Counted from the first letter of the stretch, positions 56,451-64,000 are shown. The stretch is DNA of 64,000 nucleotides from Patescibacteria group bacterium (GCA_040388985.1 JAZKAU010000002.1:183642-247641), one strand, 5' to 3'. Numbers and translations: made by a program. Notes: generated by a model from the letters alone, not told the origin.

Positions 56451-56472
56451 TTAGTCATATATATATGACTAA
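56451..56472. promoter_or_regulatory. 22-bp perfect palindrome TTAGTCATATATATATGACTAA spanning the start codon of the TrmB-like gene (putative autoregulatory operator)
   Basis: Perfect dyad centred at 56461/56462; the ATG at 56465 lies within it; a related half-site AATAGTCATGA occurs at 56384-56394. Confidence 0.45.
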
Positions 56473-57217
56473 CGGAGAGACGAACTATCTGAAAAGCGCC
56501 CTGAAGACCGGGCTTTCACCCAAGGCAGCAAGCGTATATGTGGTGTTGCTTGAAGCCGGCACGGGGCTGGCTCCCAAGAACATCATCACGCGCACCGGCC
56601 TTCACCGGCAGTACGTCTATGACGCTCTGCGGGAGCTTCAGGACGAGGGACTCGTCGCAGCGCTCGGCGCGGGACGCCGTATCCGCTATCAAGCCGCAAG
56701 TCCTGAACGCCTTTCACAGGAAGCTGAGAAGAAGCGCATCGACGTGCTCGACGGCGTGCAGAACCTCATGCGGCTGTATGAGCGATCTCCAGCGGGTGTG
56801 GTCGAGGTGGTGCGCGGAGCCAAGGCCGTTATCGAAAGCGAGTTCGCGCTCCTGCGAGAAGCGGAAGAAGGCGGATTTCTCGACGTGGTCGGAGGGGCCG
56901 GTATGAACTGGGTCCGCCTATTTGAGGACCGACTTGAGGAGTATGAGAACCTCCGGCGCGAGAAGCGTATCAAGCTGCGATACATCGGCGATGTCGACGA
57001 TGTGCGGCATAACTGGGAGGAAAGCATCATCGAGAACGAGTCTCGTATAATCCCGAACATCGGTCATGTCGTGAACGTGAATATCCGGCCCGACAGCGTG
57101 AATTTCAATATCTACGAGCCCGAGATTCTCGTGGTCCGGGTGCGCAATGCAGCAGCAGTCGCAAGCCAGCGCGCGCTGTTCGAGGTGCTGTGGAACGCGG
57201 CAAGACAAAGTAACTAG
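56465..57217 (+). CDS. TrmB-like transcriptional regulator (paralog 2)
   Basis: N-terminal wHTH (ASVYVVLLEAGTGLAPKNIITRTGLHRQYVYDALRELQDEGLV); same architecture as 6103 and 61277. Confidence 0.55.
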   Translation: MTNGETNYLKSALKTGLSPKAASVYVVLLEAGTGLAPKNIITRTGLHRQYVYDALRELQDEGLVAALGAGRRIRYQAASPERLSQEAEKKRIDVLDGVQNLMRLYERSPAGVVEVVRGAKAVIESEFALLREAEEGGFLDVVGGAGMNWVRLFEDRLEEYENLRREKRIKLRYIGDVDDVRHNWEESIIENESRIIPNIGHVVNVNIRPDSVNFNIYEPEILVVRVRNAAAVASQRALFEVLWNAARQSN

Positions 57218-58310: not shown

Positions 58311-58778
58311 ATGAATCGCAATAGGCAACGACTCATTCCGGTAACATTTCTCGTTGGCTATGGTGCGCTACTGATCAAGGTCATGGTGTTCAAGGACCTG
58401 CCCATCATACGGATCGGTCATCTGATGCTGAGGTTTGGGGGCGCGGACGCAAACGGTCAGGCGAACTTCGTGCCGTTCAGGACCATCTTTCCGTACCTAC
58501 TCGGCTATAAGGGATGGATTATCGCGGGCATCAATCTGGTCGGGAATGTAGGCCTGCTTGTGCCGATAGGAATCTTGGCCCCGTTCGTCTTCCAGAACCT
58601 GACGTGGAAGAAGTCCCTCGTTCTTGCATGCGTCGCCGGTCTTGTCATCGAAGGCATGCAGGTACTATTTCGCGTCGGTATATTCGACATCGACGATGTG
58701 ATACTGAATGCACTCGGTGTCATGATCGGATACGGCGTATGTAGAATTTTCGTAAACGTGGAAAGCGGTTCGTTCTGA
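58311..58778 (+). CDS. VanZ-like membrane protein
   Basis: NFVPFRT...NLVGNVGLLVPIGIL...IEGMQVLFRVGIFDIDDVILNALGVMIGYG (FDxDDxxxNxxG). Confidence 0.65.
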   Translation: MNRNRQRLIPVTFLVGYGALLIKVMVFKDLPIIRIGHLMLRFGGADANGQANFVPFRTIFPYLLGYKGWIIAGINLVGNVGLLVPIGILAPFVFQNLTWKKSLVLACVAGLVIEGMQVLFRVGIFDIDDVILNALGVMIGYGVCRIFVNVESGSF

Positions 58779-59203: not shown

Positions 59204-59350
59204 AAAGAAGCACTGCTCCTCATACTTCCTGCGGGTGGCGGATAACTAGGTATTACCATGAGTACACGAAAGCCAGTCAGTGTATGCACCATGAGTAGGT
59301 TGGGTCAGAGGGATTAGAACCCACCGAGTGGTGGTACAATTCGAGTGCCA
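59204..59350 (+). repeat. intergenic repeat copy A (conserved 60-nt block + GATTAGAACC) with mini-ORF MSTRKP... (59258-59317)
   Basis: GCTCCTCATACTTCCTGCGGGTGGCGGATAACTAGGTATTACCATGAGTACACGAAAGCCAG is 53/60 identical to copy B. Confidence 0.6.
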
Positions 59351-59367
59351 GAATTAATGAAAAAGCC

Positions 59368-59847
59368 ATGAATATAGAACGTAAGGAAGCGGTATCAAAG
59401 CCAGCTTCTGTTGAGCTTCAGGCAGAACGCGAGAATTGTCTTCGCGAAATGCTTCCCAAACTTCGAGAGATTGCTGCGCCTCAAACCAGGATGCTTCAGG
59501 CAGAGTTTGCAGTTGGTATAGAGAAAAATGTAGAGCGGATAAAACACATTGCCAGTCCGAGCGAGCTTGATGCGATGGCACAAAAGTTAGTCGCGCTCGG
59601 CATGCCAGCTGAACCTGATGATGCTGGTAACCCAGGCAGTTTCAACAGTCTTCCGTTCCGGCTGACAACATTAAGCAGAGAATTGACTGAACTGGAAAGT
59701 GAGAAAGATGAAGAGCGGGAACTCGGAGCTCACTCCTTCAGGCCAAAGTTCGAACATGGCTCCCGCCTTGAACGTATAGATTTCGCAGTTAAGGAAATCG
59801 GGAGATGGATAGGGAAGAGTGAAACTTACCTAAGTGGAGGGTTTTAG
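59368..59847 (+). CDS. hypothetical protein (159 aa)
   Basis: ORF preceded by repeat A and followed by a terminator; no recognisable motif. Confidence 0.45.
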   Translation: MNIERKEAVSKPASVELQAERENCLREMLPKLREIAAPQTRMLQAEFAVGIEKNVERIKHIASPSELDAMAQKLVALGMPAEPDDAGNPGSFNSLPFRLTTLSRELTELESEKDEERELGAHSFRPKFEHGSRLERIDFAVKEIGRWIGKSETYLSGGF

Positions 59848-59850
59848 CCA

Positions 59851-59893
59851 ACCACCAAAAGCAGAAAACCGCCTCGGGCGGTTTTCTGCTTTT
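59851..59893. terminator. palindromic terminator (AAAACCGCC-N4-GGCGGTTTT family)
   Basis: CCAAAAGCAGAAAACCGCC-tcgg-GCGGTTTTCTGCTTTTGG. Confidence 0.6.
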
Positions 59894-59897
59894 GGTG

Positions 59898-60052
59898 TAA
59901 ATGGATATCCAAGGTTAGAACTTCGCTGATGCTAAACAGCTCCTCATATTTCCTACGAGTGGCGGATGACTGGGCATCACCATGAGCACACGAAAGCCAA
60001 TACGTTCCTACGACTGCTCAAAATGAGCTTGAGTGATTAGAACCTACTAATA
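59898..60052 (+). repeat. intergenic repeat copy B (full length: AAATGGATATCCAAGGTTAGAACTTCGCTG + conserved 60-nt block + GATTAGAACC) with mini-ORF MSTRKPIRSYDCSK (59982-60026)
   Basis: Its 5' part is shared with copy C (61221-61300) and its 3' part with copy A. Confidence 0.6.
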
Positions 60053-60055
60053 TTT

Positions 60056-60865
60056 ATGGAATTTGTTAGGCTCATGGATATGGATAATCTGGTGAATTTG
60101 AGGGGAATTGCAGAGCTTTTCGATTCTCATAATTCAGACAAATTCATTTCTCGTCTCGCGAGTATGTTCATGACACAAGAACCAGCATGTATTGTAGTTC
60201 GCGGTATTCCGGTAACTGGAGACCCAAGGCCAGATGACTTAGGAATGGAAATCAATCCTGGTCACAAAAAACAAGCAGGCCAGAAGTACAGCGAGGAAGT
60301 TTTCAAACTGCTAAATGAGCAGATTGGAGGCAATCGCATCCAGTCAGAGATGGGGAATGTTATTCGCTCAGTAGACCCAACAAATCCTGCTTACATTAAA
60401 GTTGAGCCGACTCATACGCATCCGGATGATCGAATCAATAATATGTTTTGCAATATCTCGGACGGAGCGATATCTAATGTGACTTTCGTGGATGATGTAT
60501 GGAAGAACGCCACGGAAGAGGAAAGGGCGCTCTTTCAAAAGCATAAGTTCATAGATTTTGACGGCTCCCAAGTCTTATGGAACGAGGACTTCGTTCGTTG
60601 CGACGACATATTTGAACGTCTCGAAAACGCATCTCCGTTCGAAAATAATGAAAGTCTCTCCAACACAGCAGTCATTCTTGCTGAGGGAATTCGTGCAAAT
60701 GCGCGTGAGTATCACTTGATAGAAGGAGATATGGTTTTCTTTGCTCAGATGAAAACACTGCGAGGAGCTCCTGCATACAAGACTCCTGAATCAGGTATAG
60801 AAAAGAGATGGTACCAGAGTATGACGTTTGGAGAACGGAGAGGAGTTTTTGTTTACAACCTCTGA
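60056..60865 (+). CDS. hypothetical protein, possible Fe(II)/2OG-dependent (TauD-like) oxygenase
   Basis: THTHPDD (HxD-like) and a distal REYHLIEGDMVFF (His/Arg) region; low GC; weak assignment. Confidence 0.4.
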   Translation: MEFVRLMDMDNLVNLRGIAELFDSHNSDKFISRLASMFMTQEPACIVVRGIPVTGDPRPDDLGMEINPGHKKQAGQKYSEEVFKLLNEQIGGNRIQSEMGNVIRSVDPTNPAYIKVEPTHTHPDDRINNMFCNISDGAISNVTFVDDVWKNATEEERALFQKHKFIDFDGSQVLWNEDFVRCDDIFERLENASPFENNESLSNTAVILAEGIRANAREYHLIEGDMVFFAQMKTLRGAPAYKTPESGIEKRWYQSMTFGERRGVFVYNL

Positions 60866-60874
60866 AGCTGCTTC

Positions 60875-60908
60875 AAACTAGAAAACCGCCCCATGGGGCG
60901 GTTTTCTA
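60875..60908. terminator. palindromic terminator (same family)
   Basis: CTAGAAAACCGCCCC-at-GGGGCGGTTTTCTAG. Confidence 0.6.
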
Positions 60909-61012
60909 GAATTCTAGATTTCGTATATGTTGTGGCGTCTGAATTTCAGCGAGAACTGAGAGCTGCAATTCAGACATCCTACCAAGATATATTCACTACG
61001 TTCGTTATTTTG

Positions 61013-61025
61013 GTGGAGGTGGGGA
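61013..61025. repeat. 13-nt duplicate of tmRNA 3' end (GTGGAGGTGGGGA; minus strand TCCCCACCTCCACCA with CCA)
   Basis: Identical to 63160-63172 at the ssrA 3' end; on the minus strand it reads GTGGGTCAACCTCCCCACCTCCACCA, a T-arm/acceptor-like 3' fragment with no 5' half. Confidence 0.45.
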
Positions 61026-61220
61026 GGTTGACCCACGAATCACTAACCAGAATATTTCGTTCCTCATATTCTGCTAAGTGTTCTCGGGCCCGCCTCGCCG
61101 TTTCTCTCAGAATCGAAACATGCTCCGGCTAACTCATTGTCTTCAAGAGCGGAGCAATCCGCTCTTTCCCACTCTACAAACGAAAATGGCCCACATGAGC
61201 GGGTTTATTTTCGTACTTGT

Positions 61221-61300
61221 GGAAATGGATATCCAAGGTTAGAACTTCGCTGCTGGAATGCAGTTCCTCACATTTCCTATCTGTCGTGGACAGTTGGTAG
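61221..61300 (+). repeat. intergenic repeat copy C (5' part of B) overlapping the 3' end of the TrmB-like gene
   Basis: AAATGGATATCCAAGGTTAGAACTTCGCTG is identical to copy B; the last 7 codons (LPTVHDR*) of the minus-strand gene are read from repeat sequence. Confidence 0.55.
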
Positions 61301-62083
61301 TTTCATGTCGGCTGCCTGCTGCCATGCGAGTTCAAATAAGACTCGTCTGTAGAAGTCGGCAATATCGGCGTTCTCGAGTATTGTGCACGTCAGCTTTCCT
61401 TCGGTAAAGGACTGAATAGCAATGGAGTTATTCCAACTGAATATACCTGCTTGCCAGGAAAGTTCCTCCGGCATGAGTCGCACTCGAATCCGATACTCAT
61501 CTGATTTTTTGTACACGCGCTCGGCAAACTCGCACGGCGGGAAGATAAGTCGTGTACGGATACCCTTATCAGAACGCCTTTGGAAGTAATGTTCGAGATA
61601 TTCAGGATCCACGAGTTCTGAAAACAAACGCACATTAGTAAAGACAAGCACTTCACTCTTTGCCGAAAATGTCTCTTCTAGCATCTTTTTAAAGCCCTCG
61701 ACGCCTTCATAGAGCTTTACGTTCGGCACCCCCACCCCTGATGGAGGACTAACCTTCTCCATAAGACTCACTGCGTAACTAATATTGCTTCGCAGTGCGG
61801 CGATGTCGTTCTCTCGCTGTTGGAGCAGAGAAAAGAGAACCTTTGGATTCTCTGCACCTATATATCGCTTCTTACCTCGGCGAGATTCATACAAAAGACC
61901 TTTTTTAAGAAGTTGCTCGACTTCGCTGTGTACTGTCGTGCGATTTCTGCCTACTCCCTTTGCCAGAGACTGGATAGTTTCAGTACCGGATTCTAAACAG
62001 CGCAAGTACACCTGGGCCTCGTGCGGGTTGCAGCCGAAATGACCAAGCTGAGCGACTACGTGCTGCCTATCAGGAAAATTCAT
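61277..62083 (-). CDS. TrmB-like transcriptional regulator (paralog 3)
   Basis: N-terminal wHTH (QVYLRCLESGTETIQSLAKGVGRNRTTVHSEVEQLLKKGLL); low GC. Confidence 0.55.
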   Translation of the reverse strand: MNFPDRQHVVAQLGHFGCNPHEAQVYLRCLESGTETIQSLAKGVGRNRTTVHSEVEQLLKKGLLYESRRGKKRYIGAENPKVLFSLLQQRENDIAALRSNISYAVSLMEKVSPPSGVGVPNVKLYEGVEGFKKMLEETFSAKSEVLVFTNVRLFSELVDPEYLEHYFQRRSDKGIRTRLIFPPCEFAERVYKKSDEYRIRVRLMPEELSWQAGIFSWNNSIAIQSFTEGKLTCTILENADIADFYRRVLFELAWQQAADMKLPTVHDR

Positions 62084-62170: not shown

Positions 62171-63070
62171 GTGCATACTTCTAACTTTGACGGGTATATG
62201 ATGACAGTTTACTTTTTGTTCATGAGCAAATCACCAGTTATATACGGACAAATATCCAAAACCCGCTTAAAAAAACTCCCTTGGGGAAGCCACGGTATCC
62301 TCTGGGATGGTTTCGATAATCTCAAAACTTCTGGATTTCTGGTCGACTTTAAGAAGGAAACCTCCTATGAAGCCTGGGCGGATGTTGATTCAGAAAATCT
62401 ATGCCTAGTCGAAGCGGGAAGCGCTACCCTTGAGTGGGCAGGGAAGAAATATCTGATAAAGAACAAGGCGTTCGTGTTTAAGGTGTATCCCGGTCAATCG
62501 CCGACCGTACGACCTGGAAAGAATGGCTTTCGTGTCCTTTCGGTCCAAATGCGACACGCAAAGCAGTCCACTCGAAATAAGGATTCGTTTGATATATCAA
62601 AACTAGATGTTATCGATACTCGAAGAGTACCTGCACAAGTGTACGAGTTTGAAACACTCGCACAGGAAATATTCACGCCAAACTATAAGAACGGACTCGG
62701 ACTTATCAAATTTGCCTTTGTAAATCCGATACCTATACATCGGCATCCGTATTCCGCTCGTCTCATTCGACCGATTTCCGGCAAAGGATATACATATATT
62801 GAACCTAACATTTATGAGGCCCATGCGGATACGTACGCGCTTATACCGACCAACACGATCCACACCAATGGGAATATTCCGGGTAACGTCCTTCGACTGT
62901 ACGCCGTACAACTCCCCTGGGTGCCCAGCGGCATAGACGAGGAAAACATCGCCGGATCACCTCGCTTTGTGAAATATGTCGGAATCACTCCGCCTAAAAA
63001 GATTTGGAAGACAAAAAAACAATTTGAAACATTGATCCATACCCTTGATACCCATATATCAAAGCGTTAG
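62171..63070 (+). CDS. cupin-like protein
   Basis: PIHRHPYSA ... E ... IHTNGN fit the His pattern of cupin motifs 1 and 2; the start may be an internal ATG (62198 or 62222); low GC. Confidence 0.4.
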   Translation: MHTSNFDGYMMTVYFLFMSKSPVIYGQISKTRLKKLPWGSHGILWDGFDNLKTSGFLVDFKKETSYEAWADVDSENLCLVEAGSATLEWAGKKYLIKNKAFVFKVYPGQSPTVRPGKNGFRVLSVQMRHAKQSTRNKDSFDISKLDVIDTRRVPAQVYEFETLAQEIFTPNYKNGLGLIKFAFVNPIPIHRHPYSARLIRPISGKGYTYIEPNIYEAHADTYALIPTNTIHTNGNIPGNVLRLYAVQLPWVPSGIDEENIAGSPRFVKYVGITPPKKIWKTKKQFETLIHTLDTHISKR

Positions 63071-63097
63071 TTGTATTGAGAGTAAATCAGTAGCAAA

Positions 63098-63126
63098 CAG
63101 AAAGCCGCCTTGTGGGCGGTTTTCTA
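63098..63126. terminator. palindromic terminator (same family)
   Basis: AGAAAGCCGCC-ttgt-GGGCGGTTTTCT. Confidence 0.55.
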
Positions 63127-63160
63127 ATGTTCTATATGTTTCCACATAGTTCTATATCAG

Positions 63161-63587
63161 TGGAGGTGGGGAATAATGAGTTCCCGTCCGACCTGGCATT
63201 GAGAGCGAGTCTACGACGCGTAGCTCGTATTGAATATTCAGCAGGAACATAAGAATGCGAGCGAAAACATTCCTGCCTACATCCCTAATTTAGGCGATCC
63301 GTTCGGGCGTACGGATACCGATCTCGTAGAGAATTCCGCCCGATACTCCAGCTACGAGAACCTGGGATATCGAACGTCGCTATGCGAGACGAGCCGAAGC
63401 TCAAGCCTTACGCAGTAACGAACGCAAAGTTGAAGTCACTCATCGCGAACGGTGAGAGAACAGCCTTCCTTGCGCTTGCAACAGTGTTGTTTGCAAGTAT
63501 TGGTATATGCGTTGGTATGGCGGGACAGCATACTTCCCCCGCGTCGCACGTTTCTCAAGGTTCAGACCGTCAAAGCCGGTCACCCCC
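63161..63587 (-). ncRNA. ssrA: tmRNA (transfer-messenger RNA)
   Basis: The minus-strand 5' end GGGGGTGACCGGCTTTGACGG matches the GGGG.UGA..GG.UUCGACGG consensus. The 3' end GGACGGGAACTCATTATTCCCCACCTCCA has a 5-bp T-stem, a 7-nt loop and a 7-nt acceptor strand that pairs with the 5' end, including the G3·U wobble. An in-frame tag-like ORF ends ...SDFNFAFVTA-TAA, and a GAGC-TTCG-GCTC hairpin follows it. The gene is adjacent to smpB. Confidence 0.8.
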
Positions 63588-63642: not shown

Positions 63643-64000
63643 TTACTGACGTTTGCCGCGCATCGCTCTTTCTATCTCGCGCTGCGCATCCTTCTTCTTC
63701 AAAGTCTCGCGCTTGTCGGACTTATTCTTGCCGCGCACGATAGCGACGCGCACTTTCAGGTACCTGCCTGCATTATACACCTCAATTGGCACTATTGTCA
63801 ATCCTTTCTTCGACTCCTCGTCGGCGAGTTCCGCGATTTCCGACTTCTTGAGGAGGAGGCGGCGCGCGCGTTCAGGGTCATATCCGGCTGGTGTATTTCC
63901 GGCCTGGTAGGGAGGTATGCTCATGCCGACCACGAAGGCCTCGCCGCCGCGGATGATGATGCGCGCGCCGTCGAGCTTTCCCTGCTTAGCTCGGACGGCT
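63643..64000 (-). CDS. smpB: SsrA-binding protein SmpB (partial, continues beyond window)
   Basis: C-terminal KGLTIVPIEVYNAGRYLKVRVAIVRGKNKSDKRETLKKKDAQREIERAMR with a basic tail; the reading frame is open to the window edge. Confidence 0.85.
   Translation of the reverse strand, partial: AVRAKQGKLDGARIIIRGGEAFVVGMSIPPYQAGNTPAGYDPERARRLLLKKSEIAELADEESKKGLTIVPIEVYNAGRYLKVRVAIVRGKNKSDKRETLKKKDAQREIERAMRGKRQ

Follow-up and report, generated by a model that had tools for sequence, protein, structure and literature searches.

What kind of sequence recurs next to unrelated genes beside the transfer-messenger RNA (tmRNA) gene, ssrA, of an ultrasmall patescibacterium? The question is raised by a stretch of 64,000 nucleotides (nt) from a Patescibacteria group bacterium (GCA_040388985.1 JAZKAU010000002.1:183642-247641), hereafter called the window, in which a composite repeat is present in three copies (A, B, and C; Table 1) between positions 59,204 and 61,300. 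A preliminary description had read this repeat either as a cis-regulator of the leader-peptide or upstream open reading frame (uORF) type or as a small mobile element resembling a miniature inverted-repeat transposable element (MITE). That interpretation was partly supported by our analysis. The repeat is most likely not a regulatory mini-gene and marks a hot spot for the accumulation of foreign genes. We consider it probable that the repeat is the distal, attP-side end of elements of Paceibacterota that target ssrA with a large serine recombinase (LSR), and that the tails of recombinase genes were left behind in a tandem array.

The three copies are clearly homologous. Copies A (59212-59324) and B (59936-60047) were 72.6% identical over 113 nt (E = 1e-15), and copies B (59895-59966) and C (61219-61290) were 82% identical over 72 nt (E = 2e-14). 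A pattern for the conserved block matched A, B, and C only in the window, with 0 matches expected by chance. The multicopy composite repeat previously described is therefore real, and its three placed copies stand, with limits that had been off by a few bases. A further degenerate copy, suggested at about 61058, was not detected by nhmmer run over 56 to 64 kb with filters off and E values up to 100, which returned A, B, and C only, and no repeat-like sequence was found in the remaining 58 kb of the window. Copy A is joined straight onto the stop codon of a glyoxalase gene; it keeps the codons ...SSYFLRVADN with their stop, plus the 3' half of the repeat with a TTAGAAC motif (59314-59320). This motif occurs twice in copy B (59915-59921 and 60037-60043), and the TTAGAAC words are direct, not inverted, repeats. 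As previously reported, an ATG followed by codons for MSTRKP is present in both A and B, these copies lie upstream of two unrelated open reading frames (ORFs), neither of which has a Pfam match, and the minus-strand TrmB-like ORF ends 24 nt into copy C, so that its last 7 codons and stop are derived from the repeat.

The repeat is not confined to the window. In one scan of a metagenome collection with the block pattern, followed by an iterated nhmmer profile, the pattern was found at 13 loci (given L numbers here), and extended homology was found at 11 of them, with a total of 17 full-length copies (~153 nt) and 3 partial copies. Copies thus exist elsewhere and are conserved in relatives, as a real family on 11 metagenome contigs. 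The matches in L012/L019 (within a DnaE-like ORF) and L014 lacked extended homology and were rejected as chance pattern matches, as was a single viral match. A contig carries up to three copies, 1 to 2.3 kb apart, and the sources of the SmpB proteins encoded on family contigs label them as Patescibacteria or "Candidatus Paceibacterota." At all loci with a tmRNA gene on the contig (the window, L018, L016, L010, L023, and L028), the copies follow the tmRNA 3' end on its downstream side, in antisense, and all share one orientation and one address adjoining ssrA. Every full-length copy is immediately followed by a gene in the same orientation; before a gene that faces the opposite way, the 3' half is absent. 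The genes downstream of the copies are unrelated, and their start codons lie 0 to ~315 nt away. Half copies (C, L017b, L023a, L023b, and L028) end at an ORF stop.

The same address is occupied by recombinase genes. Six different LSRs (Resolvase, Recombinase, and Zn_ribbon_recom domains) were identified in eight loci, all convergent with smpB. At the five loci in which the tmRNA was confirmed (four by Rfam and a fifth by junction sequence), their genes overlap the tmRNA 3' end by ~90 to 140 nt. The ORF for the 578-aa LSR of L023, for example, crosses the module that precedes the tmRNA end (described below as the 3' module) and then runs ~90 nt into the antisense tmRNA, convergent with the tmRNA gene. 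Five further LSR homologues (56 to 83% identical) from other samples occupy the same site next to smpB. In the L023 (8.9 kb) and L028 (10.8 kb) elements, the end far from the tmRNA is nt 1 to 82 of the repeat, in its usual orientation. The L028 element carries restriction-modification genes, Rep_O, and a small resolvase, and some elements (L028, L032, and L035) encode another, small serine recombinase upstream. A LOOT RNA (Rfam RF03000, 77 bits) was also noticed at 5970-6087 of L028, between the restriction-modification and replication genes. Remnants of recombinase C termini were found next to the tmRNA in L018 (5605-5748) and in the window (63076-63159).

Most of a set of 120 recombinase homologues (P0121 to P0240) end in ...WRCGE[SL]NSGPN... 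or ...WRWRESNPR..., i.e., in translations of antisense tmRNA or tRNA acceptor and T-arm sequences. Judging from these C termini, the 3' ends of tmRNA or tRNA genes seem to be the integration sites of the whole recombinase clade, the recombinase ORF extending into the target.

The junctions connect the tmRNA end with the start of the repeat. Every copy starts with a GTGGAA-like core, which is degenerate in copy B (GTGTAA), L018b, and L018c. With most boundaries, the antisense tmRNA 3' end (GTGGAGG) has only GTGGA(A/G) in common. In the window, comparison of the junctions pointed to the antisense tmRNA 3' end, GTGGAGGTGGGGA, from 63160 as the attB-type partner of the GTGGAA end of the repeat. 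To the left of the core there is always a terminator hairpin with a short tail (the 3' module), which falls into four classes. The same classes precede both tmRNA 3' ends and repeat copies, regardless of the upstream gene; the type found at the tmRNA end of the window, whose translation resembles a recombinase C-terminal remnant, also precedes repeat copies in L009, L011a, L008a, and L023a. In two pairs of loci (L008b and L013; L010 and L015), the repeat and the downstream gene are common to both members from exactly nt 1, and the left flanks differ. The sharing of modules and these limits at nt 1 place the exchange point at GTGGA and make the tmRNA end and the repeat start equivalent partners. 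The 3' module is ~75 nt long and starts with the word TTAGAACC at -67; the last ~75 nt of LSR genes match the class II and class III 3' modules of the small units. In direct orientation, TTAGAACC is found at -67 (Leu-Glu-Pro in the recombinase), at +21 (x-Arg-Thr), and at ~+144 (noncoding). Since the word is kept in two reading frames, the constraint on it looks to be at the DNA level.

The first half of the repeat has the properties of a coding sequence that continues the recombinase gene. When the L023 or L028 element was circularized in silico, the recombinase ORF ran ...ATC AT/G TGG AAT TGG... (the slash precedes nt 1) through the module to a stop at nt 80 to 82. This LSR-continuing frame (from nt 2) is open up to nt 80 to 89 in all 21 copies (113 in one), a count that is in part inherited and not independent, as the copies share ancestry; the first stops of the two alternative frames fall at medians of nt 22 and nt 33. 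The encoded peptide is W-[NK]-W-[LI]-S-x-V-R-T-S-L-x-L-x-x-S-S-S-H-F-L-R-V-V-D-[DE]-W. Variability is lowest at codon position 2 (entropy of 0.355 versus 0.62 and 0.68), the synonymous share of differing codons is 33% (versus 17% and 7% in the shifted frames), and Leu-Arg is spelled CTA CGA, CTT CGT, CTG CGG, or CTA CGC. The stop of this ORF at nt 80 to 89 explains where the half copies end, and it explains the 60-nt block singled out in the preliminary description, which consists of the last 14 codons of the recombinase-continuing ORF, its stop, and the first bases beyond. A second crossover at nt ~82, proposed from the half copies and an L011/L018 breakpoint, was dropped because nt 80 to 89 hold the stop codon of the conserved frame.

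This peptide forms the end of full-length LSRs of Paceibacterota. A profile built from copies B and C only, searched against 1.84 billion proteins, returned two ORFs (E = 1.5e-8 and 1.8e-8). One protein, P0242, is a C-terminal LSR fragment that leads straight into RWNWLFQVRTSLILNSSSHFLSVVDDWS. Among the 120 homologues, P0157, P0162, and P0200 end in the module peptide, and P0216 and others do so more loosely. With hhalign, the peptide was placed at the very C terminus of the full-length LSR P0157 (E = 6e-7) and five residues short of the C terminus of P0162 (E = 2e-7). An LSR gene is thus linked to the module in L023 and L028, and the module is the 3' end of the LSR ORF in L035, P0157, P0162, and P0242. 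Neither a tmRNA gene nor smpB lies beside the genes of P0157 (L035) and P0216 (L036), which is the attP configuration. A word-index protein search with the 65-aa C terminus of the excised-form recombinase gave no match.

The geometry of the predicted attachment sites fits a serine integrase. In L035, ACAAAGT TGTG/GAAG ACTTTGT forms a perfect 7-bp dyad centered in GTGGAA. In the attP sites rebuilt from the ends of L028 and L023, TTCATGA occupies positions 9 to 15 of both half-sites around the same center. Counted from the center, the last base of the distal GAAC is at position 24 in the repeat versus position 19 in 9 of 10 tmRNA ends; numbered from the site start, it covers nt 24 to 27 in the repeats versus nt 19 to 22 in 9 of 10 tmRNA genes. 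Serine-integrase sites are imperfect dyads of ~50 bp around a central dinucleotide, and their zinc-ribbon-domain motif lies 5 bp nearer the center in attB than in attP (Rutherford et al. 2013, PMC3783163). Both features are mirrored here. The minimal sites described in that work have no counterpart for the third and fourth copies of the word found at -67 and ~+144.

Taken as the far end of ssrA-targeting elements, the repeat would arise as follows. In the free circular element, the recombinase ORF would span attP, with its last 26 to 29 codons beyond the crossover in GTGGA. Integration at the tmRNA end (antisense GTGGAGG), with exchange at GTG/GA, would split the recombinase gene. Its body would stay next to the tmRNA and read into the antisense tmRNA, and the orphan tail, together with an attP-type half-site, would come to lie at the element's distal border. 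A tandem array downstream of ssrA may then have built up through repeated insertions, with the recombinase and replication genes subsequently lost. Each unit of such an array would consist of the 5' module, with or without the ~70-nt noncoding 3' half, one or more cargo genes, and the final ~75 nt of a recombinase gene, together with a bidirectional terminator and a short tail. Copies B, C, and truncated A would be three scars of this kind.

Several observations weigh against this model. No recombinase gene was found in the 64-kb window, either by Pfam analysis of 20 ORFs or by tblastn with 122 queries (the 120 homologues, P0241, and P0242), so that the window copies are orphans. A far end is present on the contig in two recombinase-bearing elements only, L023 and L028, and the shared ancestry of the copies limits what their open frames can say, as noted above. 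The dyad was not seen in class I tails, including the 3' module next to the window tmRNA, or in the hybrid junctions of the window. Recombination between attL and attP is not a normal activity of serine integrases, which leaves the formation of an array unexplained. The model also leaves the 3' half of the repeat (nt ~89 to 153) unaccounted for; this ~70-nt segment is conserved, noncoding in six frames, unstructured, and without a promoter. Finally, the variable regions at ssrA of the related genomes L020 and L024 contain no repeat copy. The gene order in related Paceibacterota (L020 and L024 to L026) is FtsH-(patatin)-SmpB-tmRNA, 3.5 to 6 kb of variable genes, and then infC-rpmI-rplT; as none of these variable regions holds a repeat copy, other element families probably use the same ssrA hot spot.

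The small units could instead be, not dead scars, but nonautonomous cassettes that a serine recombinase supplied by a resident or visiting element continues to capture, excise, and reshuffle in trans at the tmRNA end, the array being an integron-like platform and the repeat its working site. We judge this to be improbable. It would account for the sharp, recurring limits of both unit ends (~150 nt at the 5' end, ~75 nt in the 3' module), the GTGGAA core that is intact in most copies, the mixed combinations of 3' module classes and 5' module subtypes with different cargo, and the attP-like layout of internal junctions between a 3' module and a 5' module. Independent assemblies also break at unit boundaries: one of the same strain, L001 (Logan SRR26324622_197879), ends at window position ~60907, at the terminator after the 269-aa ORF, and L021, which has the same SmpB as L020, ends ~400 nt after smpB. 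Such breaks suggest population heterogeneity in the arrays. Moreover, Dehalococcoides ssrA islands without an integration module have been proposed to be cis-mobilizable (McMurdie et al., PMC3146451). However, we saw neither excised circles nor empty sites nor polymorphic insertions, the three copies named above have a mutated core, copy A is truncated, the window has no recombinase, and serine integrases are not known to target attL- or attP-like sites without a directionality factor (PMC3783163). Given the sharp retention of ends and the mixing and matching of modules, mobilization of small units in trans is a serious possibility. The fuller proposal has a similarly low probability in our estimation: a tmRNA-anchored serine recombinase would capture cassettes of one to three genes, and the swap of ~26 C-terminal residues (module peptide versus antisense-tmRNA tail) could also switch directionality.

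A reading of the repeat as a cis-regulatory leader of the downstream gene, in the form of an MSTRKP uORF or a structured 5' untranslated region, is very unlikely. It would fit the position of full-length copies directly before co-oriented genes and the missing 3' half before opposite-facing genes. The mini-ORF starts within the stop region of the conserved frame (CCATGA), an arrangement in which translational coupling would be conceivable; in our reading, its ATG simply overlaps that stop. However, the mini-ORF is broken or absent in 6 of 17 relatives, with a stop at codon 4 in three copies (L018a, L018b, and L008a) and no ATG in three others (L018c, L017a, and L016), and the unrelated downstream genes and their variable distances also argue against a leader. 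There is no conserved RNA fold: RNAalifold consensus energies were -3.5 kcal/mol (plus strand) and -4.9 kcal/mol (minus strand), with 1 and 0 compensatory pairs, respectively, and single-copy folds of eight copies on both strands had z-scores of -1.45 to +1.42. No Rfam family matched the repeat at the gathering threshold or at E values up to 10. A scan for sigma-70-like promoters found none within the copies, and the total was not above that of shuffled sequences. The uORF form of the leader reading is largely refuted.

A MITE-like transposon, or an attC site handled by a transposase or tyrosine recombinase, is the least probable reading: the repeat is short, multicopy, recombinase-less, and set between small unrelated genes (glyoxalase/bleomycin-resistance-like and VanZ-like) as in a cassette array, with TTAGAAC direct repeats that could be arm-type binding sites, but it lacks terminal inverted repeats, target-site duplications, and an attC-like hairpin (no hairpin excess on either strand with RNA energy parameters), keeps one orientation and one address at ssrA, and continues the reading frame of a serine recombinase. 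The mobile-element origin proposed in the preliminary description thus survives, and the MITE does not. The genes called or scanned in the window array, L018, L010, and the recombinase-bearing loci include neither a transposase nor a tyrosine integrase, a negative that does not extend to the shorter array contigs. Two further ideas, arm sites of a tyrosine integrase and IS200/IS605-like ends, were also rejected, as no such enzyme was found and the ORF continues a serine recombinase gene. The repeat was likewise considered as a tmRNA pseudogene fragment, and blastn and Rfam showed no significant similarity beyond the 3'-terminal words; a common origin of repeat and tmRNA is speculative.

With the repeat read as the far end of recombinase-bearing elements, three units can be delimited in the window between 59.2 and 63.16 kb (Table 1): one with the TrmB-like and cupin-like genes (copy C), one with the 269-aa ORF (copy B), and one with the 159-aa ORF (truncated copy A). 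Three units are also present in L018. The GC content is 44 to 49% over 57.0 to 63.2 kb versus ~58% in both flanks. The window encodes three TrmB-family paralogues of 250 to 273 aa (6103-6924, minus strand; 56465-57217, plus strand; and the one in the array), of which one lies inside the low-GC array and one at its GC boundary.

Table 1. Features of the ssrA-proximal array in the window (positions counted from the first nucleotide of the window)
Feature	Position	Strand	Description
Copy A	59212-59324	+	nt 42-153 of consensus; first 41 nt missing
Cargo ORF	59368-59847	+	159 aa; no Pfam family; downstream of copy A
Terminator hairpin	59853-59897	 	Bidirectional; perfect 21-bp arms; closes unit of ORF 59368-59847; abuts copy B
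Copy B	59895-60047	+	Sole complete copy, ~153 nt; degenerate core GTGTAA at start
Orphan recombinase 3' coding end in copy B	59896-59982	+	Translation CKWISKVRTSLMLNSSSYFLRVADDWASP; stop TGA at 59983-59985
Cargo ORF	60056-60865	+	269 aa; no Pfam family; downstream of copy B
Terminator hairpin	60878-60909	 	Bidirectional; closes unit of ORF 60056-60865
Displaced tmRNA 3'-end copy	61006-61040	+	Antisense TGGTGGAGGTGGGGAGGTTGACCC; CCA encoded; direct repeat of attachment region
Terminator-like hairpin and tail	61184-61218	 	Tail ...TTTTCGTACTT; immediately before copy C
Copy C	61219-61300	+	5' module only (nt 1-82 of consensus); core GTGGAA; encodes WKWISKVRTSLLECSSSHFLSVVDSW; stop TAG at 61298-61300
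TrmB-like regulator ORF	61277-62083	-	tmRNA-proximal unit; convergent on copy C, ends within it
Cupin-like cargo ORF	62171-63070	+	tmRNA-proximal unit
3' end module of tmRNA-proximal unit	63097-63159	+	Bidirectional terminator hairpin 63099-63125 and class I tail ...TTCTATATCA followed by GTGGAGG
tmRNA (ssrA) gene	63158-63587	-	Rfam RF00023, 71.1 bits, E = 1.2e-25; just downstream of smpB
smpB	63643-64000	-	Cut by window end; conserved partner gene upstream of ssrA

The three units are closed by closely similar bidirectional hairpins (AGAAAACCGCC...GGCGGTTTTCT), the one nearest the tmRNA spanning 63097-63125. That hairpin would also end the tmRNA transcript, so that each incoming unit would supply a new tmRNA terminator. 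The tmRNA itself was found by Rfam; ARAGORN reported no tRNA or tmRNA in the window. At its 3' end (63158-63190), the resident gene has an atypical T arm (GGGAA CTCATTA TTCCC), with no TTC in the loop, and CCA is not encoded. The tag frames of the window tmRNA (63400-63500, minus strand) and of L018 (5285-5360, plus strand) look unusually long by eye, at ~23 to 28 codons (e.g., ANNTVASARKAVLSPFAMSDFNFAFVTA in the window). The displaced copy of the tmRNA end lies 2.1 kb downstream of the resident end and is the more canonical of the two; it appears to mark an older island boundary. Longer matches to the tmRNA end occur once each in the window (61013-61025, 13 nt exact) and in L018 (5822-5832).

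Between the displaced tmRNA end and copy C, ~180 nt of noncoding sequence with two hairpins (61041-61218) are ~70% similar to stretches upstream of repeat copies in L015 (495-623) and L006 (171-297), and could represent either another conserved module or the degraded 3' end of a recombinase gene. In addition, a 19-nt match to the tail and core before copy C (ATTTTCGTAAACGTGGAAA versus ATTTTCGTACTTGTGGAAA) was noticed at 58746-58764, at the 3' end of a VanZ-like ORF; it may have arisen by chance or be what is left of an earlier unit boundary.

The closest described system is that of the Dehalococcoides ssrA islands with the serine recombinase DsiB (McMurdie et al. 2011, PMC3146451). In both systems, a small, streamlined genome carries several islands in tandem immediately downstream of a tmRNA gene present in one copy, an LSR of ~540 to 590 aa is encoded on the reverse strand next to attL with the attachment repeat embedded in the 3' end of its gene, many islands lack an integration module, and some elements have a small second serine recombinase upstream. 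The Dehalococcoides islands are bounded by 20-bp direct repeats of the ssrA 3' end, whereas the boundary here is an element of 82 to 153 nt that encodes an alternative recombinase C terminus. The units described here, at 0.7 to 2.3 kb with one to three genes, are much smaller than the Dehalococcoides islands, and the host phylum is Patescibacteria.

The staphylococcal cassette chromosome (SCC) elements, including SCCmec, which are moved by the CcrAB serine recombinases, are the next analogue. They too bring cargo to the 3' end of a gene that is essential and present in one copy (rlmH/orfX), and they form tandem composite arrays in which some members are recombinase-less pseudo-elements bounded by attachment repeats (summarized in part in PMC3146451). 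The SCC target is protein coding and the boundary repeats are 15 to 18 bp long, whereas the target here is the tmRNA gene. To our knowledge, SCC recombinase genes do not span attP. A precedent for that arrangement is the intP/attP region of myxophage Mx8, in which attP lies inside the integrase gene and integration changes the 3' end of that gene, as the C terminus would be swapped here; the Mx8 integrase is a tyrosine recombinase that targets a tRNA locus, and we know of no array of orphan 3' ends at the Mx8 site. Integron arrays share with those described here an ordered, one-way series of small, unrelated, mostly single-gene units, a recurring site repeat, and a single anchor. Unlike in integrons, there is no IntI in the scanned loci and no attC hairpin or R''/R' core, the repeat lies upstream of the gene and is partly coding, and the anchor is the tmRNA gene. 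Searches of the literature for such arrays in Patescibacteria found no report. New relative to the known tandem ssrA islands are thus the phylum, the very small size of the units, and a partly protein-coding boundary module that is distinct from the tmRNA end.

These results explain a conspicuous conserved "intergenic" repeat of the candidate phyla radiation and guard against its annotation as a uORF, small RNA, or MITE. Patescibacteria have tiny genomes, and the routes by which they gain genes horizontally are poorly mapped; the GTGGAA module and its peptide provide a marker that delimits the flexible genes at ssrA in this phylum. The attB (tmRNA 3' end) and attP sites predicted here for a large and diverse clade of serine integrases are candidate tools for genetically intractable organisms. 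A recombinase that alters its own C terminus on integration could bear on the control of directionality in serine integrases, and the interest of the system would be clearly higher if cassette capture, or a directionality switch through the C terminus, proved to be true.

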